Of a stretch of 39,983 bases of DNA, positions 1 to 14,123 are shown one piece after another. The DNA lies in assembly GCA_039794085.1 (NCBI GenBank), contig JBDIWC010000037.1, positions 1 through 39,983 on the forward strand, in the 5' to 3' direction. The stretch comes from Gemmatimonadales bacterium. GTDB lineage: Bacteria; Gemmatimonadota; Gemmatimonadetes; Gemmatimonadales; GWC2-71-9. A model generated the notes under the pieces. That model was not told where the DNA came from, did not search any database, and saw only the letters and a program-made list of their open reading frames with translations. The first letter of the stretch is position 1, and each line of letters starts with the position of its first letter. The position numbers were made by a program, and so were the translations under genes.

Positions 1-127
1 TCCGCAGTCGCGGTTTCCGCAACAAGGAACGCTTCAAGACGGCCATCTATTTCCATCTGGGTGGCCTGAATCTCTATCCGGCTGGTGTCAAGTGAGGCCG
101 GTTACCCACTCAATCGGGTGAAGACCC
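1..127 (+). mobile_element. Right end of an ISL3-family insertion sequence
   Basis: Transposase C-terminus ends at 95, followed by a terminus ...GGGTGAAGACCC (GGGTCTTC on the other strand, typical ISL3 IR start) ending at 127. The interrupted KilA-N-type frame resumes at once. Confidence 0.8.
3..95 (+). CDS. ISL3 transposase, C-terminal end (5' part outside window)
   Basis: Frame 3 reads RSRGFRNKERFKTAIYFHLGGLNLYPAGVK*, matching the RGFRN...F..AIYFHLGGL.LYP tail of ISL3 transposases. Not in the ORF track. Confidence 0.85.
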   Translation, partial: RSRGFRNKERFKTAIYFHLGGLNLYPAGVK

Positions 128-569
128 ACTCTTTCTGATCAAGGAGTTCCAACGGCTGAAGGAGGATGAAAACAGCCGACTTTCGCTTGCCTGGAACCTG
201 AACCGCACGCTCTCCAAGCTCAACTACCGCATCCATACCGATGCCATCCAAGCCCACTTGATCCCCCCGGAGGTGACCCCGGCCCGGGCGGCCATGACCT
301 ACGCCAGCGAGGCCGATGTCCTGAACGTCGCCCTGTTCGGGCACACAGCCGCTGAATGGCGTCGCGATCATTCGGGCAAGAAGGGCAATGTCCGCGACCA
401 CGCCACGGTCGAACAGCTTCTCGTGCTGGCCAACATCGAGGGCATGAACGCCGAGCTCATCCACATGGGCCTTGCTCAGGGCGAGCGCCTCAAACGCCTG
501 AACGAAATCGCCATCCGTCAGATGCGGGTATTGACCACCGCGTCTGCCGTAAAGCAGTTGAAGGGATAA
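128..569 (+). pseudogene. 3' half of a KilA-N-domain DNA-binding protein gene, interrupted by ISL3
   Basis: Frame runs LFLIKEFQRLKEDENSRLSLAWNLNRTLSKLNYRIHTDAIQAHLIPPE...YASEADVLNVALFG..., the conserved C-terminal part of RM-associated KilA-N proteins. It has no start of its own. Confidence 0.8.
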
Positions 570-570
570 C

Positions 571-1140
571 GTGCTCGACACTGACACCAAACGCCGCATC
601 GACACCGCCCGCGACATCCTCGTCGGCAAGGTGCCCGACCGCAAGAGCCAGGTCGAGCAGATCACCATCGCGCTGATCTACAAGTTCATGGACGACATGG
701 ACGCCGACAGCGAGGAGCTGGGCGGCAGTCGCAAGTTCTTCGCCAACGGCTACGCCCGCTACGGCTGGGCCAAGCTGATGCGCTCGGGGCTGGGCGGCCA
801 CGAGACGCTCAACCTCTACGCCGAGGCGATCGCCAAGATGCCGGAGAACCCCGGCATCCCGCCGCTCTTCCGCGACATCTTCAAGAACGCCTATCTGCCG
901 TACCGAGACCCGGAGACCCTGCGCGCCTTCCTCAAGATCATCGACGAATTCGAGTACGACCACTCCGAGCGGCTCGGCGACGCCTTCGAGTACCTGCTCT
1001 CGGTGCTCGGCTCGCAGGGCGACGCCGGGCAGTTCCGCACCCCGCGCCACATCATCGACTTCATCGTCGCGGTGGTGGACCCCAAGAAGACCGAGACCGT
1101 GCTCGACCCGGCCTGCGGCACCGCCGGGTCCTGATCTCTC
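571..1140 (+). pseudogene. hsdM: Type I RM methyltransferase subunit, truncated N-terminal fragment
   Basis: MLDTDTKRRIDTARDILVGKVP, ERLGDAFEYLL, GDAGQFRTPRHII and DPACGTAG motifs. The frame breaks inside motif I (GGGTCCTGATCTCT, one T short of G-F-L-I-S) and homology is lost by about 1140. Confidence 0.88.
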
Positions 1141-1186
1141 CGGCGGAGATCGGTCCCTTCGTCTTGATTGATCGGTGAGGCTGCCT

Positions 1187-1260
1187 ATGCACCCGACGCC
1201 CCTTCACGCGGCCGCTGATGCACGTTGCGCGGGGGTGCGGGTGATGGCGAGCCGTTGGGC
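1187..1260 (+). other. Partial attC site (R'' box missing)
   Basis: Imperfect stem GCACCCGACGCCCC / GGGGTGCGGGTG followed by R' GTTGGGC (1254-1260). GTTGGGCTGC is 9/10 complementary to GCAGCCGAAC at the end of the BrnTA cassette. Confidence 0.65.
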
Positions 1261-1321
1261 TGCCTGATCAGGACAGGCTGAAGGCGTCTGGGAGTGCCGG
1301 GATTTCCGCAGCTCGGGTGCC

Positions 1322-1350
1322 TTGACGAACGTATATGACCCCAATATACT
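1322..1350 (+). promoter_or_regulatory. Sigma70-type promoter of brnTA, probably leaderless, with overlapping inverted repeat
   Basis: TTGACG-17 bp-TATACT with ATG at 1357. A GTATA...TATAC inverted repeat overlaps the -10 (candidate autorepression operator). Confidence 0.7.
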
Positions 1351-1356
1351 GAATCC

Positions 1357-1665
1357 ATGGTCAGCCTTGCGGCGCTCCTTGCAGATGTGGAGGGTTTCGA
1401 GTGGGACGCCGGGAATACGGCAAAGAACGTTCTCGGTCACGGGGTGTCCCGATCAGAGGCTGAAGAAGTGTTCTTTGTTGCTCCGATCGTCTTGCTCGAG
1501 GACGAAAGGCATTCGACCGTGGAACGGCGCTATCTGATTTTCGGCCCGACCGGTGCGGGGCGCCTGCTCACGGCCGCCTTCACGCTCCGCGAGCGCAGGA
1601 TTCGCATAGTCTCAGTCCGCGACATGAGTCGCCAGGAGCGTCGCCGTTATGCCCAAGCCCACTAA
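1357..1665 (+). CDS. brnT: BrnT-family toxin (RNase)
   Basis: GFEWDAGNTAKN..GHGVSRSEAEEVFF, HSTVERRY, RIRIVSVRDMSRQERRRY motifs; overlaps the antitoxin gene. Confidence 0.9.
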   Translation: MVSLAALLADVEGFEWDAGNTAKNVLGHGVSRSEAEEVFFVAPIVLLEDERHSTVERRYLIFGPTGAGRLLTAAFTLRERRIRIVSVRDMSRQERRRYAQAH

Positions 1666-2014
1666 GCAGCTCAAGCCCATTCCGGAGTTCCGCTCGCACG
1701 AAGAGGCGGGAGAGTTCTGGATGACGCATGATACGACGGAGTACTTGGACTGGAGCAAGGCGCGTCGTGTCCAGTTTCCGAAGCTCCGGCCATCCACAAC
1801 GACCATCTCGCTCCGCCTGCCTCAGGGGATGTTGGACCAGCTGCGCACCCTGGCCAATCAGCAGGATGTCCCGTACCAGAGTCTCCTCAAGGTGTATCTG
1901 GCGGAGCGCCTTGCAGCGGAGCGGGGACGCCCGGCAACGGAGCAGCCGAACACACGCGCGCAGCCGCCCAAGGGGGCACGGCCACGACGTCGGGCACAGG
2001 CCAAGTCCAAGTAG
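1649..2014 (+). CDS. brnA: BrnA/CopG-like antitoxin
   Basis: IPEFRSHEEAGEFWMTHDTTEYLDW and TISLRLP...DVPYQSLLKVYL (RHH). The C-terminal tail reads into the attC. Confidence 0.88.
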   Translation: MPKPTKQLKPIPEFRSHEEAGEFWMTHDTTEYLDWSKARRVQFPKLRPSTTTISLRLPQGMLDQLRTLANQQDVPYQSLLKVYLAERLAAERGRPATEQPNTRAQPPKGARPRRRAQAKSK

Positions 2015-2052
2015 CTGCAGCGCCTTCGCGGCTGACGCGCAGGTCGTTATAC
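1945..2052 (+). other. attC site (integron cassette recombination site)
   Basis: R'' GCCGAAC (1945-1951), L-box stem GCGCGCAGCCG / CGGCTGACGCGC, R' GTTATAC (2046-2052); 108 bp. Confidence 0.8.
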
Positions 2053-2070
2053 GGCGTCGAAAGAGATTCA

Positions 2071-2250
2071 GTGGGCCACCACTTCGTTCCTCGTTTCTAC
2101 CTTCGGTCCTTCCAGGACCCTTCAAAGCCTGGGCATATCTGGACTCTGGTCCGCGGCCAGGCCCAGCCGCGGCTGCTCCCGATTGACGTCGTGGCGCAGT
2201 CTCCTGCCTTCTACGATCCAACCACAGAGCAGGTACTAACTGAGTTATAT
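2071..2250 (+). pseudogene. Truncated DUF4238-family cassette gene
   Basis: GHHFVPRFYLRSF...VAQSPAFY N-terminal signature. After about 2250 the frame runs into REP-like repeat DNA. Confidence 0.7.
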
Positions 2251-2271
2251 AATGGCGGGGTTAACAAGCCC

Positions 2272-2693
2272 CGTCATTCCCGCGGGACGCGGGAATCCAT
2301 TTGCGGCTCTTCGGGGTTTCCGGTAGGTGGCCCCACTCGGCGTGCTCCACCTGGAATTGGGGTTCTTCTCCAGTTTGAGGTGATCGCTGTTCAGTCGTCA
2401 TCCCGATCTTGATGCGCATGGAACTGCCTCAACGCAAGGGCGCCAGGACGCAGGGGCGCAACGGCGCCTGGGTCTGCCGCGCTTCGGCCATGCCGCCTGC
2501 ACGGAAATCGGGAGAAGAACCGGAATTGGATTTTTCCCCAAGGCTGACGCCAGGGGAGAGGGGGGAGCAGGCGATTTTGTGAAATATTTCACAAGCGCCA
2601 CTCGGGATCTCGTCATTCCCTCGAACGCGGGGATCCATTTTCGGCTCTTCAGGGTTTCCTGTGAGGCGCCCCGCTCGGTGTGCTCCGCTTGGA
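2272..2693. repeat. Two copies (2272-2355, 2611-2693) of an ~84-bp direct repeat beginning with a GTCATTCCC..GGGAATCCA REP-like palindrome
   Basis: CGTCATTCCCGCGGGACGCGGGAATCCATTTGCGGCTCTTCGGGGTTTCC.. vs CGTCATTCCCTCGAACGCGGGGATCCATTTTCGGCTCTTCAGGGTTTCC..; a third REP head lies at about 18696-18723. Confidence 0.8.
2577..2594. promoter_or_regulatory. Rex-operator-like palindrome TTGTGAAATATTTCACAA
   Basis: Perfect 18-bp palindrome matching the Rex consensus TTGTGAA-N4-TTCACAA. Confidence 0.6.
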
Positions 2694-2728
2694 GTGGCAT
2701 TTCCCGGGGCTGACGCTCCCTTCCCCCC

Positions 2729-2842
2729 GCGGGGTTACGGGATTGGGCTGCGGGTGGTAATGTTCTGTGGCTTTCCGCCCCGGCCCGGGGCGAGTAAAGG
2801 CGCTTAGGAGCGTCCTTCCAATATTTTTACAAGTTGGGAAGC
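2729..2842 (+). other. attI-like cassette entry module, copy 1
   Basis: Shares a 45-bp core and GCCCCGGnCCGGGGCGAGTAnAGG with 3661-3752. Ends TTTACAA-GTTGGGA (2833-2839) with no attC-type hairpin. Confidence 0.5.
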
Positions 2843-2866
2843 AGGCACTAGGTGGGATAGCGGGGC

Positions 2867-2895
2867 TTGACAATACACTTAACTTGTCTTAGCTT
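2867..2895 (+). promoter_or_regulatory. Cassette-internal sigma70 promoter
   Basis: TTGACA-17 bp-TAGCTT with an overlapping GACAA..TTGTC inverted repeat, upstream of GAGG-N6-ATG (2927). Confidence 0.55.
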
Positions 2896-2926
2896 ACCTC
2901 ATCTTCCGGCCACGGTGAGGACCACA

Positions 2927-3580
2927 ATGCTCGATTCAATCGAACAAAGGCTCAAGCAGCGGAAGGCGCAGCTGCACAAAGAGATGGCCGCTGCGGCAAC
3001 CTCCGGCGACTCGCCCACGCTTCTTAGACTAGGGGATGAGCTCCGGGGCGTGGAATCAGTAGCCACGAAGTTCCGATCGTTGGTCGACGAGGCCGAGGCG
3101 GTTATCAGCGGGCCGGCCAGTCATGGCAAGCCGGACACTCCGCCCGACGTGGATGTTGGAACACGCAGTCGCCGAGTACACGGTCGTGGGCAAGGTGTGG
3201 AGATACGGACGGCGTTTCTCCAAGACGCCGCCAGCCGGGGGATTCAATTGACCCCCCACCGGGGTTCGATATTCACGACCGTCACGGGCCGCAAGGTGGG
3301 ACTCGCCGTCGCAACAGAGCGCCAACGGGATCGCTGGTTCCTCGGTTTGCCAGCGAATAGTGTCGATTCCGCGGTTCTCCTCTGCCAGACCAACGGTGGG
3401 AAGCGGCTGGACGTCTGCTTGCCGGGTCGCTTCTTTCAACGGTACGGAGCGCAGCTCAGCAATTCTGGTGGCCAATGGAAATTCAACGTTCATCGTCGTG
3501 CAGGTCGCATCGTTCTCAATATCCCGGGGCATTCATCGTTCGACGCGACCGACTTGGTTGGCGAGGTTTCGGAACTCTGA
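2927..3580 (+). CDS. Hypothetical cassette protein (217 aa; N-terminal coiled coil plus globular C-terminal domain)
   Basis: ORF with RBS and its own promoter, bounded by GTTGGGAAGC (2833) and GCTGCCCAAC (3589-3598), which are 9/10 complementary. Confidence 0.75.
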   Translation: MLDSIEQRLKQRKAQLHKEMAAAATSGDSPTLLRLGDELRGVESVATKFRSLVDEAEAVISGPASHGKPDTPPDVDVGTRSRRVHGRGQGVEIRTAFLQDAASRGIQLTPHRGSIFTTVTGRKVGLAVATERQRDRWFLGLPANSVDSAVLLCQTNGGKRLDVCLPGRFFQRYGAQLSNSGGQWKFNVHRRAGRIVLNIPGHSSFDATDLVGEVSEL

Positions 3581-3607
3581 ACGCCCCAGCTGCCCAACAA
3601 GAGGGCG

Positions 3608-3625
3608 TTGTGAAGTATTTCACAA
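3608..3625. promoter_or_regulatory. Rex-operator-like palindrome TTGTGAAGTATTTCACAA
   Basis: Second match to TTGTGAA-N4-TTCACAA, located just after the R'' box of the preceding cassette. Confidence 0.6.
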
Positions 3626-3660
3626 TGTCCACCCGGGATCCGACGGATGCTCTCTTGCCT

Positions 3661-3880
3661 GCGGGGTTACGGGATTGGGCTGCAGGTGGTAATGTTCTGT
3701 GGCTTCCCGTGTTCAGGCCACCCTGATGGCCCCGGACCGGGGCGAGTAGAGGTCTGTACGGGAGGGAGCCTATGGTATCCTGTTGTGCCGAGGGGCATGC
3801 TTGCGCAGCGTTGGGCTTTTGTACTGCGGAGGGCGGGTCCTCCCCTCGCTGGCTATTTACAAGTTAGATGCCAGCGAGGG
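3661..3880 (+). other. attI-like cassette entry module, copy 2
   Basis: Core GCGGGGTTACGGGATTGGGCTGCrGGTGGTAATGTTCTGTGGCTT shared with 2729. Possible extended -10 TGGTATCCT at about 3773-3781. Ends TTTACAA-GTTAGAT (3863-3869). Confidence 0.55.
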
Positions 3881-3900
3881 ACAGGGATTTCCAATTTGAT

Positions 3901-5421
3901 ATGACGTCTATCAACGATCTCCCTCCTCGCCGAATCCCACCGCGATCCTCAGCGCTCACCGGGTCAGAGTCTCGCCTCGACAAGCTCAGCCGAGAGACGT
4001 TCCTGAGTCTTTGGAGTTATCCCGGTGTTTGTCGGGATCAAGGGAGTGGTAAAGGAGATCGTGGGGCCAAGGAAGTCTGCGACCTTCTGGTCGTGTTCGA
4101 AAAAGACATCCTCATCTTCTCTGATAAGACCTGTGAGTTTCCTGCGACAGGAGATCTCTCGCTAGACTGGAAACGCTGGTATCAACGAGCGATAGTCAAG
4201 TCAGCTAGACAGGCTCGAGGTGCTGAGCGTTGGATCCGAGAACACCCAACCCGCCTGTTTCTCGACCGAAGCTGTAAGCATCCGTTCCCGTATCCCCTGC
4301 CCGACCCCGCTTCCGCACGTTTCCACCGCATTGTCGTGGCTAGCGGGGCATCAGGTCGCTGCCGAGAAGAGCTTGGTGGCAGTGGCAGTTTGATGCTTAG
4401 GCTGGGCTTCGAAGAAATCCCCGGTTTAGACCTCCCATTCTCAGTTGGCCGGCCGGATGGACACCCCGGGCTCATCCATGTGTTCGATGAAGTCACTCTA
4501 GGGGTTGTTCTACGTGCGTTAGACACAGTTTCTGACCTTGTCAACTATCTCGTCGCAAAAGAGCGCCTTGCCTCAACCGTGAGAATGGTAGCGGTTCCCG
4601 GAGAGGAGGATCTGCTCGCCAGATATCTCAAGCACCTCGGCCCTTCGGGGACACACGACTTCGGATTCCCGACCGGGTACGATGGGATCATGATAGAGGA
4701 GGGAGCGTGGGAGGAACTGGCCATGAACCCCCAATGGCTGGCGAAGCTTGAGGCAGATAGGGTTAGCTATGCCTGGGATGCTCTAATCGAGAAGTTCACT
4801 CACTACTACGCTACTGGGGAGTCGAGCTTATCGGCCAACGCGGGCGTTCATGGGTTTGAACAGGGCCTGCGCTTTCTAGCACGTGAATCCAGGGTCAGGC
4901 GCCGGATGTTGGCCGACGCGTTGCTCCAGAACATGCAGAAGGCGCGCGAGGGCACTGAGCGCTCGACGCGCCTTGTGATCCCGACCAGGGCAGGCGATCC
5001 TCACTACGTATTCCTCGCATTTCATCACCCGCCGCACATCCCAGAGGAGCGCTACAGGATTACTCGCCGTGCAATGCTGGATGCACTAGCACGTGCGACG
5101 CGGTTGCGGTGGCCGGAGGCCGTGGATATCGTGGGCATCGGCACGGACCCATTGGAATCGCCCAACATGTCCGAGGACTTGCTCTACCTCGATGGCAGGG
5201 AATGGGATGCTGAGGCCGTGGCCGAGGCAGAAGCTCTACAACGGCACTTCGGGCTGTTTACGGCCCTAAAATTCGGCCAAGCGACTGCAAAGGAATACCC
5301 AGAGCCTCCACGTGGGCGGCGAGAGCCCTACCGCAAGGCTGGGCTTCAATTTGGTCGCAACGACCCTTGCCCTTGCAGGAGCGGCAAGAAGTTCAAGCGC
5401 TGCTGCGGGTCAGGGCGGTGA
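3901..5421 (+). CDS. SEC-C motif protein with an N-terminal nuclease-like (NERD/PD-(D/E)xK-type) motif; cassette gene
   Basis: C-terminal GRNDPCPCRSGKKFKRCCG; N-terminal KEVCDLLVVFEKDILIFSDK. Codon usage is more AT-rich than the core genes. Start is 3868 or 3901. Confidence 0.8.
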   Translation: MTSINDLPPRRIPPRSSALTGSESRLDKLSRETFLSLWSYPGVCRDQGSGKGDRGAKEVCDLLVVFEKDILIFSDKTCEFPATGDLSLDWKRWYQRAIVKSARQARGAERWIREHPTRLFLDRSCKHPFPYPLPDPASARFHRIVVASGASGRCREELGGSGSLMLRLGFEEIPGLDLPFSVGRPDGHPGLIHVFDEVTLGVVLRALDTVSDLVNYLVAKERLASTVRMVAVPGEEDLLARYLKHLGPSGTHDFGFPTGYDGIMIEEGAWEELAMNPQWLAKLEADRVSYAWDALIEKFTHYYATGESSLSANAGVHGFEQGLRFLARESRVRRRMLADALLQNMQKAREGTERSTRLVIPTRAGDPHYVFLAFHHPPHIPEERYRITRRAMLDALARATRLRWPEAVDIVGIGTDPLESPNMSEDLLYLDGREWDAEAVAEAEALQRHFGLFTALKFGQATAKEYPEPPRGRREPYRKAGLQFGRNDPCPCRSGKKFKRCCGSGR

Positions 5422-5422
5422 C

Positions 5423-5534
5423 ATCGAACTGACGCTTGCTGCGGGCGGGGCTGACAGAATCGGTCTCCGGGCCGTAGCTTCCCATCACGCAGGGGCCGTA
5501 CCTAGCCCCGCCGCAGAACCGCGGGTCGTTGGAC
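5423..5534 (+). other. attC site
   Basis: R'' ATCGAAC (5423-5429; CATCGAAC is 7/8 complementary to the cassette start GTTAGATG), stem CTGCGGGCGGGGCT / AGCCCCGCCGCAG, R' GTTGGAC (5528-5534); 112 bp. Confidence 0.82.
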
Positions 5535-5585
5535 ACCAACCGAACTCCCGATGTACCTTTCGGGTACGCTGCCAGGGAGGCCCAA

Positions 5586-5810
5586 GTGACTGAAGCCACG
5601 TTGCCGTTCCACCGCGACCGCGAGATCATGGGCGGCGCCTTGGTTTTTGTCGGAACCCGAGTCCCGGTACAAACCCTGCTTGAATATCTTGAGGCGGGGG
5701 ACCCCTTGGACGAGTTTCTCATGGACTTCCCGAGCGTGCGCCGCGAGCAGGCGGTGGCCACCCTCGACCTGGCGAAAGGCCTCCTGCTGCAACAGGTACC
5801 GGTGGCCTGA
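5586..5810 (+). CDS. DUF433-family antitoxin
   Basis: DREIMGGALVFVGTRVPVQTLLEYLEAGDPLDEFLMDFPSV; GGGAGG RBS before GTG 5586. Confidence 0.88.
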   Translation: MTEATLPFHRDREIMGGALVFVGTRVPVQTLLEYLEAGDPLDEFLMDFPSVRREQAVATLDLAKGLLLQQVPVA

Positions 5811-6134
5811 GTGCGGGTGTTGCTCGATGAGTGTGTCCCCAGGCGGCTGCGTCACGCCCTGCCCGGGCTCGAGGTCTCCACGGTCGCGGACGAGGGTTGG
5901 CTGGGGCGTCGCAACGGCGACCTCCTCCGCTCGATGGCGGAGGTTGGGTTCACGCACCTGGTCACTGTGGATCGCAACCTGATGTTCCAGCAGAATGTCG
6001 CGGCCGCTGGTGTGGCGGTCCTCGTTGTGCGGGCGCGCACCAACCGAATCACCGAGCTCCGGCCACTCATGGCGACGGTCGCCGAGATGCTGCCAACGGT
6101 GGCGCGCGGCCAGGTCGTCCACGTCGGTGTCTGA
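5811..6134 (+). CDS. DUF5615/VapC45-like PIN toxin
   Basis: MRVLLDECVP, GWLGRRNGDLL, LVTVDRNLMFQQN; directly abuts the DUF433 gene. Confidence 0.88.
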   Translation: MRVLLDECVPRRLRHALPGLEVSTVADEGWLGRRNGDLLRSMAEVGFTHLVTVDRNLMFQQNVAAAGVAVLVVRARTNRITELRPLMATVAEMLPTVARGQVVHVGV

Positions 6135-6261
6135 CGGGCGTTTGCATTCGCTACCCCCGCAGCCAAAGGCTCGGAAGACACCTCGATCGGTTCGCCAACC
6201 GGCCTAGCCCGTCAAGCCTCCTCCCATGGCTCGGTGGTTGGCCGAGAGTTGGACGGACGAT

Positions 6262-6330
6262 CACACCAGCACCTCGGTGCCCGGCATGATGGCCAAGCCG
6301 ATCATCGACAGCGACATCGTCATCTCCTCC
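6262..6330 (+). pseudogene. GrpB-family (UPF0157) gene fragment
   Basis: Frame reads HTSTSVPGMMAKPIIDSDIVI, resembling the HIGSTSVPGLxAKPIIDID signature; no intact ORF. Confidence 0.6.
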
Positions 6331-6690
6331 CGGGATCTTCGTTTCGCCGACTGCTTCAGGGCTCGCGAGCACACCACCACAGCCGCCGATCGCCGATGAT
6401 GCGCCTACGGCGAGCATGCTCGCTGCTGATTGGCATCTCGTTAGGCGGCGGCCGCGAGAGGTCAGGAGCGTGGTCCCGATCCACGACGAGCATCCAGACA
6501 AGCGCGGGCGGCCGCCGGGCATCGGGACCGAACGCCGAGCCGGACTGGAGCGGCTATGGCTTGCGAGATGCCTCCAGCCGGGTGATCAGGGCGGAGCCCC
6601 GGTCACCGTTGCGTTCAGCCGCCGGGCAACCTTTCATTCAGCCGACGCCCAAACTTGCATATAGCCGACGCCGGGACTTACGATTAGCCG

Positions 6691-6816
6691 ATGCCCGACG
6701 CGGTCCTCTACCCCCGCTTCGCCGAACGTCGATTGACCGAGGCCCTCGCCGATTCGCCGGCCGTGCTGATTCACGGGCCCCGCCAGAGCGGGAAGACGAC
6801 CCTGGCTCAGATCGTA
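6691..6816 (+). pseudogene. N-terminal fragment of an AAA_14/DUF4143-type ATP-binding protein
   Basis: LYPRFAERRLTEALADSPAVLIHGPRQSGKTTLAQ (Walker A); runs into an attC right arm. Confidence 0.75.
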
Positions 6817-6865
6817 GGCCGGCCGGCGGCCGGTAGATTCTTTGGGGCACGCGCGGGCCTCGGCG

Positions 6866-6896
6866 GGCCCCGCCGCAAAAGCGACGAACGTTAGAC
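6866..6896 (+). other. Right arm of an attC site
   Basis: GCCCCGCCGCAAAAGCGACGAAC-GTTAGAC, similar to the right arm of the 5423-5534 attC; R' at 6890-6896. Confidence 0.7.
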
Positions 6897-6914
6897 GGCG
6901 ACAGGAGACACCGC

Positions 6915-8105
6915 GTGCACCACGCGCCGAACAGTTCTGCGACAGCCACCAGCGTTCCGATAGCGCGGGCCAGGATCACGTTCGACCGGAACGAGCTTGC
7001 GGGGGCTTTCGGAGACATGGGGACGGATGTGCCCCTCCTCATCGGGATGGCGCTCGCCGCCGGTCTTGATGGAACGAGTGTCCTCGTGATGTTCGGCGTC
7101 ATGCAGCTTGTCACGGGGCTCGCCTACCGGATGCCGATGCCGGTCCAGCCCCTCAAGGCGATGGCGGCCATCGTCATCGCGCAACAGGCGTCCGCCGCGA
7201 CGCTCTACGGCGCCGGGCTTGCGATCGGGCTCGTCATGCTGGTTCTGGCATCCACGGGATTGCTCGACTGGCTGGCCCGGGTGGTTCCGAAGTGTGTCGT
7301 GCGGGGCATCCAGTTTGGTCTCGGCCTCCAGTTGGCCTCCGTCGCCTTGGGAAAGTTTGTGCAGGCCGACGGGGCTTCCGGGTACGCGCTCGCGGCGGGC
7401 GCGTTCGTCATTACGATACTGTTGCTGGGCAACCGGCGGTTCCCCGCAGCACTCCCCGTGGTGGTGCTCGGAGCAGTGTATGCGCTGATCTTCAATTGGG
7501 ACGGCGGCCTCGCTCGCAGTTTCGCCTTCCAGCTACCCGCGTTGCACGCTCCACAACCGGCCGACATCCTGACGGGGTTCCTGGTCCTCGCCTTGCCCCA
7601 GATACCGCTCTCCCTCGGCAACTCCGTGCTCGCCACCCGGCAGCTCGCCGAGGACCTCTTCCCGGAGCAGCGGTTCACGATTCGCAAGATCGGGCTGACG
7701 TACGCTCTGATGAACCTGATCAATCCATGGTTTGGTGGCGTGCCGATATGCCACGGCTCGGGTGGAATGGCGGGGCACTTTGCCTTCGGGGGGCGAACGG
7801 GTGGGTCTGTCATCATCTATGGTTCGCTCTTTGTACTACTCGGCCTGTTCTTCGGCTCGGGCTTCGACCACCTGGCGACGACGTTTCCGCTGCCGATGCT
7901 GGGAATCATCCTTCTCTTCGAAGCGCTGGCGCTCATCTGGCTTGTCCGTGAGACATCTCAGTCTCGTAGCGAGTTTCCGGTTGCGGTGCTGGTCGGTCTC
8001 CTCGCCGTCGGGTTGCCCTACGGATACGTGATCGGCCTGGTCGTTGGAACCGCTCTTTTCTACCTTGGCCATCGGACACGCCTCATCAGCCCGGACGCCG
8101 TCTGA
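6915..8105 (+). CDS. Putative molybdate/sulfate transporter (MOT1 family), cassette-like
   Basis: FDRNELAGAFGDMGT, PMPVQPLKAMAA, PICHGSGGMAGHFAFGGRTGGS motifs; many TM segments. Bounded by GTTAGACGGCG / CGCCGTCTGAC. Confidence 0.88.
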   Translation: MHHAPNSSATATSVPIARARITFDRNELAGAFGDMGTDVPLLIGMALAAGLDGTSVLVMFGVMQLVTGLAYRMPMPVQPLKAMAAIVIAQQASAATLYGAGLAIGLVMLVLASTGLLDWLARVVPKCVVRGIQFGLGLQLASVALGKFVQADGASGYALAAGAFVITILLLGNRRFPAALPVVVLGAVYALIFNWDGGLARSFAFQLPALHAPQPADILTGFLVLALPQIPLSLGNSVLATRQLAEDLFPEQRFTIRKIGLTYALMNLINPWFGGVPICHGSGGMAGHFAFGGRTGGSVIIYGSLFVLLGLFFGSGFDHLATTFPLPMLGIILLFEALALIWLVRETSQSRSEFPVAVLVGLLAVGLPYGYVIGLVVGTALFYLGHRTRLISPDAV

Positions 8106-8223
8106 CAACCGCATGCAGCGGAGCGGTAGGTATCCTCGGAGTTGTCAATGTCGTACTCCTCGTCCCCAAGTGTCGATTCTGTGCTGGTGATCGAATCCCT
8201 GCCCGGTGGTGATCTCTGCCGGC

Positions 8224-9429
8224 TCAGGGCGTGCGGGATGCTTTCAGTCGCGTGATCAGGACGACACCGTTGATCGCGGCCTCGCCGTACCGAGCCACGG
8301 CTGCGGGACCCTTCACGATCTCAATGGAGGCAATCGATTTGGGGTCGGTGATCACCAGGCTCTCGGCGGAGAGTCCCTCGGGCCAGACCTTTCCGTCGAC
8401 CAGCAGGAGAGGTCCATCCGGGTCACCGAGACGCACCCGGGAGCCCTTGGCTGCCTGGATCTGCACTCGCTCCTGCCTCGCCCGGGCGGCCGACGCGCTT
8501 GGCGTCGAAGGAGAGGCAGGTGGATCGGTCACCGCGGCATCGCAGGCCAGCACGAACAACAGGGCGGCGAGACTTCCGGCCAGGGCCGGCAGCATCGGGC
8601 CCCGGAGGGAGGAACGGGGACGGGTGATCATGTCGATTCTCCTGCCAAGGTGGGAACGAATGGGGGCAAAGGCCACGGCGGCGATCAGCGGCCGAGACGC
8701 GCGGGGACGGGGAAGATCGAGCAGCATCTCCGCGTAGTGCCGGAGAGATGCTCCCGCATGCAGAACCCGCCGGTCACAATCCAGCTCCAGGGAGAGACGC
8801 AACCTCCGGAACGACCACCAGAGGAGGGGATTCCACGGCATGATCACGAGGAGCACGAACCCGGCATGGAGCAGGGCCACGTCTCCCGCGCGGGCATGTT
8901 CGCCCTCATGAATCAGCAACAGCCGGCGGCGGCGGGTGTCCATGCGCCGAGCCCACTCCGGAAGGACGATCCGCGCGGGCCGGAAGCCAACCACCGCCGG
9001 GCCGAAATCGGTGGTGTATCTGACCGGAACCCCCGCCACCGACCCTGATCTCCACCCCCGCGCCTGCCTGCGGAGCGTCAGCACTGTCGCGGCAAAGGTG
9101 AGACCGACGCCGAGACTCAGAGCCACCCAGAGGAGCCCGATCCACCCCGTGCCCGGCGCGGACTCGGTGATCGTGCCGGCGTTCGCACCGATGTCCACCG
9201 CCGGGATCCAGTGGGAAACAGACAGGTCCCCGGGAAGGTGAAGGGGGGCCATCATCCCGGACAGCCAGGGCCCCAGGAAGGGGAGGGAGACCGAGGCCAC
9301 CATCGCCGTCACCCACAACCACCGGGTGTGGGAGGAGAACCGCTCCCGGAGGGTCCATTCGAGTAGAGCGGCACCGGCCACGCAGAGCGCCGAGACAACC
9401 AGCGCGTTGACCATCCACGACGCGCTCAT
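8224..9429 (-). CDS. BlaR1-like M56 metallopeptidase with C-terminal TonB-receptor plug-like domain
   Basis: GPAVVG, HEGEH zinc motif, WNPLLWW, ELDCDRRV; C-terminal PLLLVDG..IASIEIVKGPAAVARYGEAAINGVVLIT. Confidence 0.88.
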   Translation of the reverse strand: MSASWMVNALVVSALCVAGAALLEWTLRERFSSHTRWLWVTAMVASVSLPFLGPWLSGMMAPLHLPGDLSVSHWIPAVDIGANAGTITESAPGTGWIGLLWVALSLGVGLTFAATVLTLRRQARGWRSGSVAGVPVRYTTDFGPAVVGFRPARIVLPEWARRMDTRRRRLLLIHEGEHARAGDVALLHAGFVLLVIMPWNPLLWWSFRRLRLSLELDCDRRVLHAGASLRHYAEMLLDLPRPRASRPLIAAVAFAPIRSHLGRRIDMITRPRSSLRGPMLPALAGSLAALLFVLACDAAVTDPPASPSTPSASAARARQERVQIQAAKGSRVRLGDPDGPLLLVDGKVWPEGLSAESLVITDPKSIASIEIVKGPAAVARYGEAAINGVVLITRLKASRTP

Positions 9430-9800
9430 GGCTCCGTCTCCTTGAGCCGCTCAGCCAGAATGCGCCGGATCCTTCGCAGCTCCTCCGGCGTCACCGTGTC
9501 GTCCTCCACCAGCCGGGCAATCAGCAACTCGCGGGATCCCTGGTACACCCGGTCGAGGATCTGCTTCAGGGGCCGGTCCCCCGCCGCCTCGGCGGAGACG
9601 AGCGCCCGGTACCGGTGGGCCTTGCCGTCCTTGGCGTGGGTGACGCAGCGCTTCGCCTCGAGGCCCCGGAGCACGGTCAGAACCGTGGTGTAGGCGAGGC
9701 CGGCATCGAGATGGTCCCGGACTTCGGTGACGGTGCCGGGGCCGTGGGCCCAGAGCACACCCATGATGTCGAGTTCCCGGCTGGTGAGGCGGACGGCCAT
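9426..9800 (-). CDS. BlaI/MecI/CopY-family repressor
   Basis: LTSRELDIMGVLW..GTVTEVR..LAYTTVLTVLRGLEAK..GKAHRY; ATGA overlap with the M56 gene. Confidence 0.92.
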   Translation of the reverse strand: MAVRLTSRELDIMGVLWAHGPGTVTEVRDHLDAGLAYTTVLTVLRGLEAKRCVTHAKDGKAHRYRALVSAEAAGDRPLKQILDRVYQGSRELLIARLVEDDTVTPEELRRIRRILAERLKETEP

Positions 9801-9808
9801 GGTGTCTC

Positions 9809-9859
9809 CTATCTACTAAGTACGTAGTAGATAGTATCACAAAGTGCAGACGGTGTCAA
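9809..9859 (-). promoter_or_regulatory. Promoter and probable autoregulatory operator of the blaI/blaR-like operon
   Basis: Minus strand TTGACA (9859-9854)-17 bp-TACTAT (9836-9831). A perfect IR CTATCTACTA-N6-TAGTAGATAG at 9809-9834 overlaps the -10. Confidence 0.8.
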
Positions 9860-9876
9860 GAGCCAAGGTATGGGTT

Positions 9877-9956
9877 CCTGTGGGTGCGCCGCGTGCGGCG
9901 CACTTGGGTGGAGAAATGGGAGTGCCTTGGTGCACCGCAAGCGGCGCACCCACAGG
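9877..9956. repeat. Inverted REP doublet (REPIN/BIME-like)
   Basis: CCTGTGGGTGCGCCGCGTGCGGCGCAC (9877-9903) and its 25/27 reverse complement at 9930-9956. Confidence 0.75.
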
Positions 9957-9985
9957 GTCTTTCCCCTACAGCGACGAAGGCGGCC

Positions 9986-10636
9986 TCACCGCCGCCACAC
10001 CCGCGTCACCCGGGCCGCCAGAATCCGGTCGAGCAACGGAAACTCCCGGTCCAGATACCGGTTCCCCTGCGCCCCAATCGAGTCCTGGCGCTGGGCCGGT
10101 GTATTGCCATATCCGCCATGGAACGAATCCACCACCTCCATTCCATGGGTCACCTCCCCGAACGGCGGATACCCGACCACACCACGGGCATCCAGAGTGT
10201 CGAGCCTCGGGTTGTCGCGCAGGTTGATGAACACCTGCACCGACCTGGTCTCGGGTCCGGATCGCGCAAAGGACATCCGACCTCGGCGGTTGAGTTCCCG
10301 GACCGGTTCATCCCCGAGCCCGCGAGTCCTCCAGGCGGCATTCACCGCCGAGTCGCCGGTGAGGCCGAACTGGACCACGAAGTTGGGGACCACGCGGTAG
10401 ATCCGGAGGTCGTCCCAGACCTTCCGCTCCACCAGATCGAACACCCGGTCGGCGGCGAGTGGCGACCACGCCCGGTGGATCATCGCCACGACCGTGCCTC
10501 GGCTGGTGCGGAAGGTGACTTCGAAGCTGTCGGGTCGGCTCTCAGCGGGAACGGGACGATCGGACGGGAGACGGGATGAGCCGCCGCAGGCCGCGAGAAC
10601 GAGAGGGACCACAGTCCAGGCCAAGGGACGCATCAT
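9986..10636 (-). CDS. Cyclophilin-type peptidyl-prolyl isomerase, lipoprotein
   Basis: YRVVPNFVVQFG, MSFARSGPETRSVQVFINL, GYPPFGEV; lipobox VLAAC after MMRP (start 10636). Confidence 0.88.
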   Translation of the reverse strand: MMRPLAWTVVPLVLAACGGSSRLPSDRPVPAESRPDSFEVTFRTSRGTVVAMIHRAWSPLAADRVFDLVERKVWDDLRIYRVVPNFVVQFGLTGDSAVNAAWRTRGLGDEPVRELNRRGRMSFARSGPETRSVQVFINLRDNPRLDTLDARGVVGYPPFGEVTHGMEVVDSFHGGYGNTPAQRQDSIGAQGNRYLDREFPLLDRILAARVTRVWRR

Positions 10637-10888
10637 CGTGGGTGCACCTCGGATGAAGGATGCATCATGGTCAGTCGGACACCAAAGAGACCGCCCTCTC
10701 GGAGGGTCATCCCGAGGGTGAAGCCCGAGGGATCGGTGAAGGGGTTCCGAGTCAAAGATATAGTTACGGTCCGGCGTTGAAAATGGAGGCAGGTGGCTCA
10801 TGGGATGACCTGTTGGGAAAATCATTGGGGGAGGCTGGTCATGACGGAGAGTGACTGCAGGTCACGCGGAGACGCGGAGGCGCGGAGG

Positions 10889-11056
10889 ATGGATTGGGAT
10901 GAGATCACGGGAGCGATCATCGATGACGCGATGAGGCTGCACCGGGATCTGGGACCGGGGTTGTTGGAGTCCGTGTATGAGGCTGTTCTCGAAAAGATGC
11001 TGGTTGGGAAGGGGCTTTCGGTTGAGCGGCAGAAGAGAGTGATCTTTGAATATGGA
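10889..11056 (+). pseudogene. Truncated GxxExxY protein gene, copy 1
   Basis: MDWDEITGAIIDDAMRLHRDLGPGLLESVYEAVL..VERQKRVIFEYG, then a repeat arm; catalytic half absent. Confidence 0.85.
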
Positions 11057-11191
11057 CCTCCGCGTCTCCGCGTGAGATTCAGTCGACGTCCTGTTCCGAA
11101 ACGGGGGAGTGACACTTGGAGGAGGGGGACCCAGCCTCCCACCAAGCCCAGGCTACCAGGAGACTCCGAAGAGGATTAGACCCTGGATCCC

Positions 11192-11450
11192 ATGCCCGAC
11201 ATCACCCCCCGGTTCCCCTCCTCGGAGCAAGAACTCGCCCTGCGCCTCCAGGGGTGTGTGCGTGCATACTGGGAGGCCCGCGGTGGTCAGTCCCGCCGCC
11301 AGGAGGACGGTGGGGTCAAGGATGCCGGGACTCGTGGGGAGGTGACGGGTGGCCAGCACCTGAACGCGTTTGTTCAGCTCCTGTCCGAGATCATTCGATC
11401 CGCCGGTTATTCCGAGTCAAAGATATAGTTTACGGTCCGGCGTTGAAAAT
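11192..11450 (+). pseudogene. N-terminal fragment of a PaeR7I/XhoI-like type II restriction endonuclease
   Basis: VRAYWEARGGQ...DAGTRGEVTGGQHLNAFVQLLSEII motif; stop/frameshift at about 11426. Confidence 0.7.
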
Positions 11451-11554
11451 GGAGGCAGGTGGCTCATGGGATGACCTGTTGGGAAAATCATTGGGGGAGG
11501 CTGGTCATGACGGAGAGTGACTGCAGGTCACGCGGAGACGCGGAGGCGCGGAGG

Positions 11555-11722
11555 ATGGATTGGGATGAGATCACGGGAGCGATCATCGATGACGCGATGA
11601 GGCTGCACCGGGATCTGGGACCGGGGTTGTTGGAGTCCGTGTATGAGGCTGTTCTCGAAAAGATGCTGGTTGGGAAGGGGCTTTCGGTTGAGCGGCAGAA
11701 GAGAGTGATCTTTGAATATGGA
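11555..11722 (+). pseudogene. Truncated GxxExxY protein gene, copy 2
   Basis: Same sequence as copy 1, enclosed by a perfect 27-bp inverted repeat (11528-11554 / 11723-11749). Confidence 0.85.
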
Positions 11723-11870
11723 CCTCCGCGCCTCCGCGTCTCCGCGTGAGATTCAGTCGACGTCCTGTTCCGAAACGGGGGAGTGACACTTGGAGGAGGG
11801 GGACCCAGCCTCCCACCAAGCCCAGGCTACCAGGAGACTCCGAAGAGGATTAGACTCTGGATCCCATGCC

Positions 11871-11984
11871 GCGCTTCTTGCCTCGCCTCGCGGCACCACC
11901 GGCGCCTTCTCGACGCCCGATCCCGCCCTGGGCTTCATGCCGCTCGCGCGTTCCCTCTACGGGCATCTGATCGGAGCGGCGTAG
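11871..11984 (+). pseudogene. Probable C-terminal fragment of the same PaeR7I-like endonuclease
   Basis: ALLASPRGTTGAFSTPDPALGFMPLARSLYGHLIGAA* resembles PaeR7I-family C-termini (recalled similarity only). Confidence 0.5.
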
Positions 11985-12103
11985 ATGTCCACGCTTGAGT
12001 TGTTCACGAGTTCCTGGGAGGACCTCTTTCCGGCCGGCTGCGTCTCCCCGTGCAGGTACAGTCATCAGAGTCCGGACGACGGGAAGTTCACCCGCAGCCT
12101 CCT

Positions 12104-12193
12104 CAGATCCCTCGCTTCCGCTCGGGATGACAGATTCTCTCGGAGGGATGACAGATCACGGTCGGGATGAGGCTCATGGTCGGGATGAGGCTC
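12104..12193. repeat. REP-like GATCCCTCGC..CTCGGGATGAC element plus short tandem GGGATGA repeats
   Basis: Inverse family member GTCATCCCGAGGG..CGAGGGATC at about 10706-10734. GGGATGACAGAT occurs twice and GGTCGGGATGAGGCTC twice. Confidence 0.65.
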
Positions 12194-12198
12194 CAAGT

Positions 12199-12282
12199 GT
12201 CATTGTTCATTAGTCATTGTTCATTAGTCATTGGTCATTGGTCATTGGTCATTGGTCATTGGTCATTGTTCATTGGCCATTG
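12199..12282. repeat. Heptamer tandem array, 12 x GTCATTG variants (STRR2-like)
   Basis: Twelve consecutive 7-nt units counted; the array overlaps the stop codon of the FG-GAP gene. Confidence 0.92.
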
Positions 12283-14123
12283 TGTCGAAAGAACCTCACC
12301 CCTCCTCCGACTCCGCCCAGGATCAGATCGGCTCGTCCGTCACCATCGAGATCACCGAGAACCGGTGCGGCAAGGGCGGGGGCATCGAGCCGGAAGGTAT
12401 CGTCCCGGACAAACCGGGGAGCGGTCCGGGTTCCCTGGTTCCGGTACAACACCACGCCGTCCACCTCCGACCCGATGAGGAGATCGAGAAGCCCGTCTCC
12501 ATCGTAGTCCACCAGATACGGAGAGCTGCGGCGCCCGATGTCGATCCCCTCCCACTCGTCGCTCACCAGAACGAATCGGGGCGCCGTCCTCGTCCCCTCG
12601 TTCCGGTAGAAGTTCAGAGTGCCGGAGGCCTCGCCGATCAGGAGGTCAAGGTCACCATCCCCGTCGAGATCGCCGAGGGTTGGGGTGGTGTTGCTCCCGC
12701 GCGTGATGGTCACCATCGCGGAGTCGACCAGCGTGAAGCGAGGGGTTCCCTCCGCGTTTCGGCCGGTGTTGCGGTACCAGGCGATCCGCGGCCCCCACCC
12801 GCCGAGAAGGAGATCAACCTCCCCGTCACCATCGAGATCCCCGAACGCGGGCGCCAGGTGATAGGCACCGGCGAACGGGGCGGGCAGGACCCCGCGCATC
12901 CGGAGCCCCTCTCGTCCCCGGTTTTCGAACCAGTAGACCCGGGAGGTGGAGAGGTCCGCCGGGTCGATCTTGTTGGCCAGGAGGAGGTCGAGGTCCCCGT
13001 CGCCATCCCAGTCCACCAGGGCCGGAATGCTCTCGCTCCCCACGTCGATGTTGCCGACGAGCTGGCGGGTGCGCTCCACCCAGGCGCCGTTGCCATCTCG
13101 AGTGACGGCGATGAGATTGGCGATGGTGGTCCGGTTGGGGTTGAACGCTCCCCCCAGCACCCCGATCGCGACGTCCAGTCCACCGTCTCCCCCGAGATCG
13201 CCGAAGGCGGGGGCATTGTACCCGCTGGTCAGCACCGGGGCCGCGGTGGGGAACTGCACCGGAGTGCTCCGGTAGTTGAAGGCCTCGCAGCTCCCGGTGT
13301 TCTCGATCCGCAGCAATCCTTCCTCGAAGAAATCGCCCCAGAAGAGGTCGAGGTCCCCATCGCCGTCGCTGTCGGCCAGGGCCATGGTGTTGGCGCCATG
13401 CAGACTCCCGCCGAACTGCGCCACGATCAGGATGTCCTCGAATCGGTCGGTGACCCGCCGGAATCGCGGCACCCGGGACGTGCCGGGCAGCATCTCGTAC
13501 CGGCTCGCGGTGCCATCCACCTTCCCCACCAGCAGGTCGGGGAGTCCGTTGCAGTCGAGGTCGGCGATCTGCGGGATGTTCTGCCGGTCGGAAAAGAGGG
13601 GGGATCCATCCTCGAGCCGCAGGGTGTCCGTAGCGAGAACGAACCGGGCCTCGCGCGGAGTTCCCTCGTTCCGGTAGTACCGGATGTAGCTGAACCGCTC
13701 CTCGGAGAGAAGATCCATGTCGCCGTCGCCATCGAGGTCGGCAAAGCGGTACCACTCGCCGATGGTCAGGCCGCCGTAGTGCCGGCTCCGAAGCACGAAG
13801 CGCGGCAGACCGTTCTCCTCCGTCCCGTCGCGTTCGAGGAACATCACGCGATCCGTCGTCTCCTGGAGAAAGAGGTCGTCGTCTCCGTCGCCGTCGATGT
13901 CGATGAGCTGGGGACGGGGCGCGTTCAACCCACCCAGAAAGGGGATCTCGAGCCGTCGTCCCGCGGTGTCAATGACGGGAAACGGCGCCGCCTCCTCACG
14001 CCACCCGTGCATCCCCTGGATCGGCGCCACCCCGGGAGTCGGAGAAGGGGTGCCCCCTGTTCCTGACGCACAAGCGGCGGCGAACCCGAGGCCCGCCGCC
14101 GCCAGGAGCCGGGAGATCCTCAC
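12270..14123 (-). CDS. FG-GAP/VCBS-repeat lipoprotein
   Basis: Many P.L.DLDGDGDLDLL repeats; signal with AAAC lipobox. Start is GTG 14123 (GTGA overlap with the upstream gene) or ATG 14129. Confidence 0.88.
   Translation of the reverse strand: MRISRLLAAAGLGFAAACASGTGGTPSPTPGVAPIQGMHGWREEAAPFPVIDTAGRRLEIPFLGGLNAPRPQLIDIDGDGDDDLFLQETTDRVMFLERDGTEENGLPRFVLRSRHYGGLTIGEWYRFADLDGDGDMDLLSEERFSYIRYYRNEGTPREARFVLATDTLRLEDGSPLFSDRQNIPQIADLDCNGLPDLLVGKVDGTASRYEMLPGTSRVPRFRRVTDRFEDILIVAQFGGSLHGANTMALADSDGDGDLDLFWGDFFEEGLLRIENTGSCEAFNYRSTPVQFPTAAPVLTSGYNAPAFGDLGGDGGLDVAIGVLGGAFNPNRTTIANLIAVTRDGNGAWVERTRQLVGNIDVGSESIPALVDWDGDGDLDLLLANKIDPADLSTSRVYWFENRGREGLRMRGVLPAPFAGAYHLAPAFGDLDGDGEVDLLLGGWGPRIAWYRNTGRNAEGTPRFTLVDSAMVTITRGSNTTPTLGDLDGDGDLDLLIGEASGTLNFYRNEGTRTAPRFVLVSDEWEGIDIGRRSSPYLVDYDGDGLLDLLIGSEVDGVVLYRNQGTRTAPRFVRDDTFRLDAPALAAPVLGDLDGDGRADLILGGVGGGVRFFRHNGQ

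Follow-up and report, generated by a model that had tools for sequence, protein, structure and literature searches.

Two gene cassettes of an uncultured Gemmatimonadales bacterium are each headed by the same module, which starts with a Rex-type palindrome and ends in a GTT triplet, raising the question of what this module is and whether it places cassette expression or capture under redox control. The DNA analysed here (39,983 nucleotides, hereafter the window) is contig C37 of a 4.16-Mb assembly, G000 (115 contigs, 67% GC, 94.7% complete); the features located below lie on its plus strand, apart from the operators, an insertion sequence end and a cluster of palindromic repeats, which carry no strand. 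The palindrome, TTGTGAA-N4-TTCACAA, occurs at 2577-2594 and 3608-3625 and is followed by a shared core (2726-2777 and 3658-3709, 49/52 identical), by the GC-rich palindrome string GCCCCGGnCCGGGGCGAGTA, which starts at 2777 in module 1 and at 3729 in module 2, and by TTTACAAGTT, starting at 2826 and 3856. The GC-rich palindrome of module 1 (2777-2796) reads GCCCCGGnCCGGGGC-GAGTA and is similar to a REP-like family of this genome, and module 2 carries the second copy at 3729-3748. The start of the palindrome lies 256 bp (module 1) and 255 bp (module 2) from the G of GTT; the two-module arrangement described in the earlier note is thus borne out in every named element and in both distances. The same note would have counted a palindrome that is a generic dispersed repeat against its reading. 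The palindrome, or box, is indeed not confined to the module and has 28 perfect copies in the genome; of the core, GCCCCGGnCCGGGGCGAGTA and TTTACAAGTT, the assembly contains exactly two copies each, all inside the window. We consider it probable, from the sequence comparisons that follow, that the locus is a duplicated Pc-attI head lacking intI, a variant of known integron decay, equipped with a likely Rex operator drawn from a genome-wide set.

In an integrated cassette, the R'' box at the 3' end is complementary to the core at the 5' end. R'' of cassette 1 (3589-3598) is complementary to the cassette's own 5' core at 9/10 positions and that of cassette 2 (5420-5429) at 8/10, and the first cassette of the array in a sister genome, G001, has an R'/R'' complementarity of 8/10, so that the pairing is present in all three cassettes downstream of a module, two here and one in G001. 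Both junctions carry insertion cores of the GTTRRRY type, the first of which, GTTGGGA, is one base off the consensus; the crossover G|TT would lie at 2833 in attI-like site 1 (2821-2839) and at 3863 in attI-like site 2 (3843-3880). The 8 bases before the GTT share their A/T richness with intI-linked attI sites, whereas the attC ends of this genome are G/C-rich, and a fold check of both modules revealed no attC-type hairpin upstream of either GTT. Of the further attI elements, an L box and accessory IntI sites (DR1/DR2), the L box is weak by eye, and the module core attains a moderate score on the motif found downstream of intI in this family. Because of the R'/R'' pairing, the different first cassette in G001, the lack of an upstream attC hairpin and the A/T-rich bases, we read the module end as an attI site, at which recombination itself is predicted. 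The pairing and the different first cassette behind the orthologous G001 module, together with the likeness to intI-linked heads, uphold the earlier proposal of an attI/promoter unit, and each module copy precedes a different cassette, a point that the proposal had asked to be checked: cassette 1, cassette 2 and, in G001, yet another. A perfect inverted repeat with arms of 11 bp (3843-3853 / 3870-3880), absent in module 1 and in G001, straddles attI 2, its right arm lying within cassette 2.

ORF-less promoter cassettes reportedly exist, and module 2 does start with a G|TT at the left edge of its box, behind an attC stub, which would fit a decayed attC, or else the double capture of a promoter cassette without an ORF, in place of an attI. 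We regard this reading as quite improbable, since the start of module 1 lacks GTT and the G001 module heads its array directly behind a chromosomal gene, in addition to the missing hairpins and the attI-like bases before GTT.

The attI reading leaves cassette 1 between two heads. Its ORF (2927-3580, 217 aa) belongs to no Pfam, NCBIfam or PADLOC family, its atlas look-alikes are hypothetical proteins, and the cassette has a promoter-like site of its own at 2867-2895. The attC behind this ORF (3589-3607) is truncated rather than absent, because a left stub, R'' at 3592-3598, precedes the junction with module 2. An R'' behind the ORF followed by a second head is the arrangement of delta-attI-type cassettes. 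Cassette 2 (ORF at 3901-5421, with a C-terminal SEC-C motif) ends in an attC at 5423-5534 with G|TT at 5528, and a further attC lies upstream of both modules at 1945-2052 (R'' at 1945-1951, G|TT at 2046, a long bottom-strand hairpin with an energy z of 0.04 against shuffles). With at least these two attC sites, both called from core pairing and fold shape with fold energies not beyond those of shuffles, and no nearby intI, the locus has the composition of a CALIN. A plain attC heuristic applied to the whole genome overlooked known sites, and no count given here is based on it.

If the module is an integron head, its relationship to intI must be accounted for. An integron integrase match was found in 82/151 genomes of the family, and we examined 32 intI loci (30 from these matches, together with G001:C154 and G000:C22). 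A GTTAG core lies at most 350 bp downstream of the intI stop in 19/32 loci, and the motif YTAGRYWG occurs 21 times downstream of intI versus once upstream (shuffles: mean 1.6, maximum 5), three of the 21 downstream occurrences being the GTTAG cores themselves. Judged by this layout, the integrons of the family are of the reverse type, with intI facing into the array, so a divergent intI is not expected. They resemble in this respect the reverse integrons of Treponema denticola, in which intI and the cassettes are co-directional and Pc and attI lie behind the 3' end of intI (PMC7691350); unlike in those integrons, intI is missing at this locus. We found no linked intI on the 40-kb contig, at the end of contig C93 or beside the G001 module, and neither of the two occurrences of the core strings is linked to an integrase, the earlier note having asked for a copy next to a divergent intI. 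The genomes searched (401 of the class, of which only G000 and G001 match) yielded no intact intI beside the head in precisely this form, and the link between head and intI therefore rests on short likeness.

This likeness concerns the core, which consists of two hexamers with 17-bp spacing whose positions are kept across homologues and which form a putative cassette promoter, Pc, at 2735-2763 (TTACGG, 17 bp, TAATGT) and at 3667-3695. A consensus promoter scan makes no call on the core, which falls below its threshold, so Pc can only be inferred. On a position weight matrix the two module copies score moderately (of 8.3 million positions, 118 and 479 reach such scores) and the G001 copy much more weakly. 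The closest non-self matches to the core 29-mer among 8.3 million positions lie on contigs C19 (24/29), C24 (23/29) and C14 (22/29), the last behind a co-oriented intI stub; at 20/29 there are nine matches, among them one on C8, again behind an intI stub, and one on C10. Eight intI-stub heads were found in G000 (C22, three on C8, two on C14, C11 and C18, the last with a decayed core), with further intI-less heads on C24 and C45. The distance from the putative Pc to attI is 98 bp in module 1 and 196 bp in module 2, against about 70-80 bp at the intI-linked heads here. By this comparison, the repeat is likely the Pc-attI head of a reverse integron that lacks intI, probably through deletion of the gene. 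Several copies of an intI 3' stub with Pc and attI are found within a few kilobases at C8:31590-37760 and at C14:23300-26370, and one of the C8 heads also lies behind a truncated attC.

The integrase itself appears to be broken in this genome. The C22 intI lacks residues 60-83 and carries a frameshift when compared with its intact G001 orthologue, and the other IntI-like matches in the G000 assembly are fragments only, so that no intact intI was found in the assembly; a copy absent from the assembly could be present in the organism. A gene resembling a REP-associated tyrosine transposase lies just upstream of the broken intI (L001:496-1035).

The palindrome was proposed earlier to be a Rex operator, and this identification stands at the level of sequence. 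Box 1 matches TTGTGAA-W4-TTCACAA exactly, and box 2 has exact arms and one G in the spacer. A rex gene, for which the earlier note had called, is present in G000, scores above curated cut-offs and has a box directly before its start codon; among 20 boxes picked from 10 relatives, 8 lie before rex and 8 at a cupredoxin locus. Rex of Staphylococcus aureus recognizes an 18-bp consensus with an A/T-rich spacer (Pagels et al. 2010, PMC2883068). Because the palindrome equals this consensus and boxes lie at rex here and at rex and the cupredoxin locus in relatives, it is very likely a real Rex operator. The alternative of a LexA box was rejected on the position of the box at rex. A box conserved across the family between the cupredoxin gene and a divergent 260-aa gene without a family match (G000:C1:155616, L011) is a probable core Rex target.

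The box does not, however, belong to the integron platform, because it is missing from the G001 module (7/14 partial match at the aligned position, by eye), from the 32 intI loci and from the eight other heads. No box with three or fewer mismatches was found in the intI loci (L074-L105, with one duplicate) or in the 1.4 kb preceding each of the eight intI-stub heads of G000, and the heads on C24 and C45 have none. The box consensus and the presence of rex are all that speaks for control of cassette capture by Rex through a divergently transcribed intI. That proposal of the earlier note has against it the lack of intI in the 40-kb contig and in the joined contig start, the inward-facing intI of the family, the 32 loci without a box and the presence of a lexA gene in the genome, and we consider it extremely improbable; with no integrase at the locus, Rex cannot control one here. 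Redox control of gene capture is also unlikely because the box is one of 28 genome-wide and is absent from the module of G001.

Comparison with G001 suggests how the duplicated head arose. Contig C187 of G001 is the orthologous locus with a single module followed by a different cassette. It shares an upstream amidohydrolase gene with G000 contig C93 and shares a DUF433 cassette and BlaR/BlaI genes downstream with the window, in which the two-gene DUF433 cassette (5529-6134) has 98% DNA identity with the G001 array and anchors the orthology. A multicopy insertion sequence, presumably of the ISL3 type, links contig C93 to the window; its end occupies 1-127, and its 8-bp target duplication at 128-135 also borders C93. 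The G001 module lies directly behind the chromosomal amidohydrolase gene, heading an array of other cassettes, and the similarity between G001 and the window ends 4 nt after the G of G|TT at attI 2. Module homologues were found only in G000 and G001 among 61 relatives and 401 genomes of the class. Of two pattern scans of metagenomes for the module, one returned 0 matches and the other 4 chance matches with unrelated flanks; a G001-like module, with a match that ends at 3867, is present on contigs from three runs of a single study, which are not independent of G001, and a fourth run has no coverage of it. The read runs that contain the window are hot-spring metagenomes, two of them labelled as its possible source. 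The G001 array (L073:6150-14600) carries defence-like genes, namely a type IIG restriction-modification gene, PD-Lambda-3-like and PDC-M19A-like genes and a weak match to a type IV restriction endonuclease.

Measured against G001, module 1 has kept an upstream mosaic dispersed repeat (2611-2720, composed of hairpin, IS-end-like and REP-like pieces) but is missing about 98 bp of the stretch from promoter to attI, whereas module 2 has kept the promoter-attI segment and lacks about 99 bp upstream, including the mosaic repeat. The near-equal length of the modules therefore results from two different deletions. A rough post hoc estimate gives a few percent for a 256/255 match by chance, and a length constraint on the spacing from box to GTT is conceivable. 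The fusion point of module 2 lies a few bases past the AAC in the R'' of cassette 1. The two module copies are identical in 73/86 columns and match G001 in 70 and 68 of 86, and the duplication may tentatively be placed after the split from G001.

We propose that IntI encoded elsewhere would have inserted cassettes at G|TT, that the head would then have acquired the box, unless G001 lost it instead, and been duplicated, with the copy fused just behind the R'' of the cassette 1 attC to give attI-ORF-R''-Pc-attI, and that each module copy would subsequently have lost about 100 bp from a different segment. The arrangement would persist because the IntI of G000 is broken. Rex would bind both boxes at low NADH and would at most modulate the second Pc, whose box lies 41 bp upstream of the putative -35 hexamer.

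The closest known arrangements are the delta-attI-type cassettes, in which only R'' is left of attC and an attI fragment, up to 244 nt long in class 2 integrons, takes its place, and the attI-ORF-attI cassettes, which IntI1 excises at about 100% (Gonzales Machuca et al. 2026, PMC12901181). The locus shares with these the substitution of R'' plus an attI fragment for attC and the presence of attI on both sides of an ORF. Set against what the consulted sections of that paper describe, it differs in being a sedentary chromosomal array of an uncultured lineage without linked intI, and in a replacement of about 265 bp that includes a putative Pc and a Rex box. It likewise resembles CALINs, clusters of attC-bounded cassettes without a neighbouring intI that originate from intI loss or rearrangement (Cury et al. 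2016, PMC4889954), in having cassettes between attC sites and no adjacent intI; unlike the CALINs treated in the passages of that paper used here, it has kept and duplicated a Pc-attI head, and the genome contains about a dozen heads. The locus would thus represent a natural chromosomal attI-ORF-attI, preserved where IntI is broken; in laboratory assays, IntI1 eliminates this structure almost immediately. The locus also indicates that integron heads are copied around a genome.

The boxes of the two modules belong to a larger set. G000 has, besides the 28 perfect boxes, 9 with one mismatch and 7 with two, where about 0.001 exact boxes per genome are expected by chance, and only the 4-base spacer, of spacers of 0-11 bases tested, gives boxes. 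G001 has 27 perfect boxes and the other 59 of the 61 relatives have 0-5. Across 401 genomes of the phylum, a tally that includes one unpublished genome (G469) on which none of the statements made here depends, the only others with more than five are 14/24 genomes of a genus in another family, g112 (6-20 copies); seven genomes of g112 have no box, and rex is present in both of two tested. Orthologous G000 boxes exist for 21/27 G001 boxes, and in these the arms differ at 5/294 positions versus 191/1021 in the flanks (p about 5e-17) and 85/373 in A/T flank columns alone, a comparison that omits the six G001 sites without a counterpart and includes the sites at rex and at the cupredoxin gene. This suggests that the boxes are under selection. 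For the six G001 sites without a G000 counterpart (6/27), alignment gave no clean ancestral partial site that would document the conversion of a partial match into a box. One of the G001 boxes lies about 200 bp upstream of a gene whose G000 orthologue has no box (L107, G001:C244:22874); we take this gene to resemble pyruvate:ferredoxin oxidoreductase.

The surroundings of the boxes would also fit neutral passengers, copied with dispersed mosaic repeats and functionless here. At 19/37 G000 sites a repeat flank is common to another site, repeats are more frequent in the flanks than at random intergenic positions that were not matched for size (0.153 vs 0.091), and the neighbouring genes are functionally mixed, comprising rex, ATP synthase subunits and cupredoxin but also Rho, RNase E/G, peptidases, toxin-antitoxin and Fic genes, with a median of about 250 bp from box to nearest downstream start. 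The roughly tenfold greater conservation of arms over flanks, which also holds against the A/T flank columns, makes this reading improbable, as do the several unrelated repeat families that flank the boxes and the g112 boxes that lie within genes without repeats. In g112 the box falls inside an ORF with Pfam support in 7/30 loci examined, in an ABC ATPase and an NADH:flavin oxidoreductase gene (each in both genomes), a sarcosine oxidase-like gene, mnmE and the last codons of a biotin carboxylase gene; these boxes, from the loci L170-L199, fall on A/T-rich codons and lie in genes without repeats. Chromosome sites with an origin/terminus pattern, of the matS, SlmA or Noc type, are enriched around or excluded from the terminus. 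In three single-contig g112 genomes, we saw by eye no exclusion of boxes opposite dnaA, the terminus being placed there only by presumption. Boxes did not significantly avoid the gaps between convergent genes in G000 (2/29 versus about 16%, with 8/37 sites left unclassified by a crude gene caller).

A second possibility, the proposal of the earlier note limited to expression, is that box and Pc together make up a regulatory unit under selection, in which Rex represses or modulates Pc and the first cassettes are expressed as NADH accumulates. The arms are perfect in both copies while the rest of the module has diverged, orthologous arms are far better conserved than their flanks, and the near-identical distance from box to GTT fits such a unit. 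A Rex box also lies about 32 bp upstream of the core homologue on contig C10 (G000:C10:77950-78040, L019) and is conserved in G000 and G001. The perfect arms and the C10 pair in both species argue that a box and a promoter can be a selected unit. The C10 site precedes a low-GC gene, and no attI was seen there. At the locus studied here, however, the boxes end 140 bp (module 1) and 41 bp (module 2) upstream of the putative -35 and so neither overlap nor closely contact a promoter that is itself putative, whereas the mapped S. aureus sites, in the portion of the source drawn on here, lie within promoters or a few bases from them (PMC2883068). The box is also missing from the G001 module and from the heads on C24, C45, C8, C14, C11, C18 and C22, and cassette 1 has its own promoter-like site. 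A selected box-promoter unit is thus rather unlikely; if it were real, expression of newly captured cassettes would depend on the NADH/NAD+ ratio.

The probable reading remains an intI-less head with an operator from a genome-wide set, and the boxes of this set, which look selected, may form a larger regulon, act as decoy sites or have a structural role. The set shares with the S. aureus Rex regulon an identical consensus, an autoregulatory rex site and one-mismatch sites near ATP synthase genes (PMC2883068). It differs from the regulon, as far as that source describes it, by its 28 perfect sites, against 0-5 in relatives, in a genome of 67% GC, and by the placement of most sites well away from starts and next to unrelated or foreign genes and, in a second genus, partly in coding sequence. 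We speculate, with considerable doubt, that Rex was redeployed here and independently in g112 from a regulator of two to three metabolic sites into a protein that binds across the whole chromosome at 10-30 perfect sites under selection, located in repeat-rich hot spots of foreign DNA and even in genes, and was here wired to an integron Pc. Perfect Rex operators have become numerous and are kept conserved, even inside genes, in two lineages of the phylum that are unrelated to each other. We found no paper that joins a Rex regulon to integrons, integrases, gene cassettes or transposable elements in a search that covered few subscription journals.

The module gave no indication of a structured RNA or ribozyme (RNA fold z -0.83), and an Rfam search of window positions 1-13000 returned only two weak miRNA matches, both outside the module. 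Upstream of the modules lie a BrnT toxin/CopG-type antitoxin cassette (1357-2014) and a cluster of dispersed palindromic repeats (2272-2576) that interrupts a DUF4238 gene fragment. The insertion sequence with its 8-bp target duplication splits one gene between window positions 1-569 and C93:1-530, which is presumably KilA-N-like, although a Pfam search of the window fragment returned no match. Further downstream, the window contains a tandem duplication with a period of about 670 bp (10764-11870) and an array of 7-bp tandem repeats (12185-12296).
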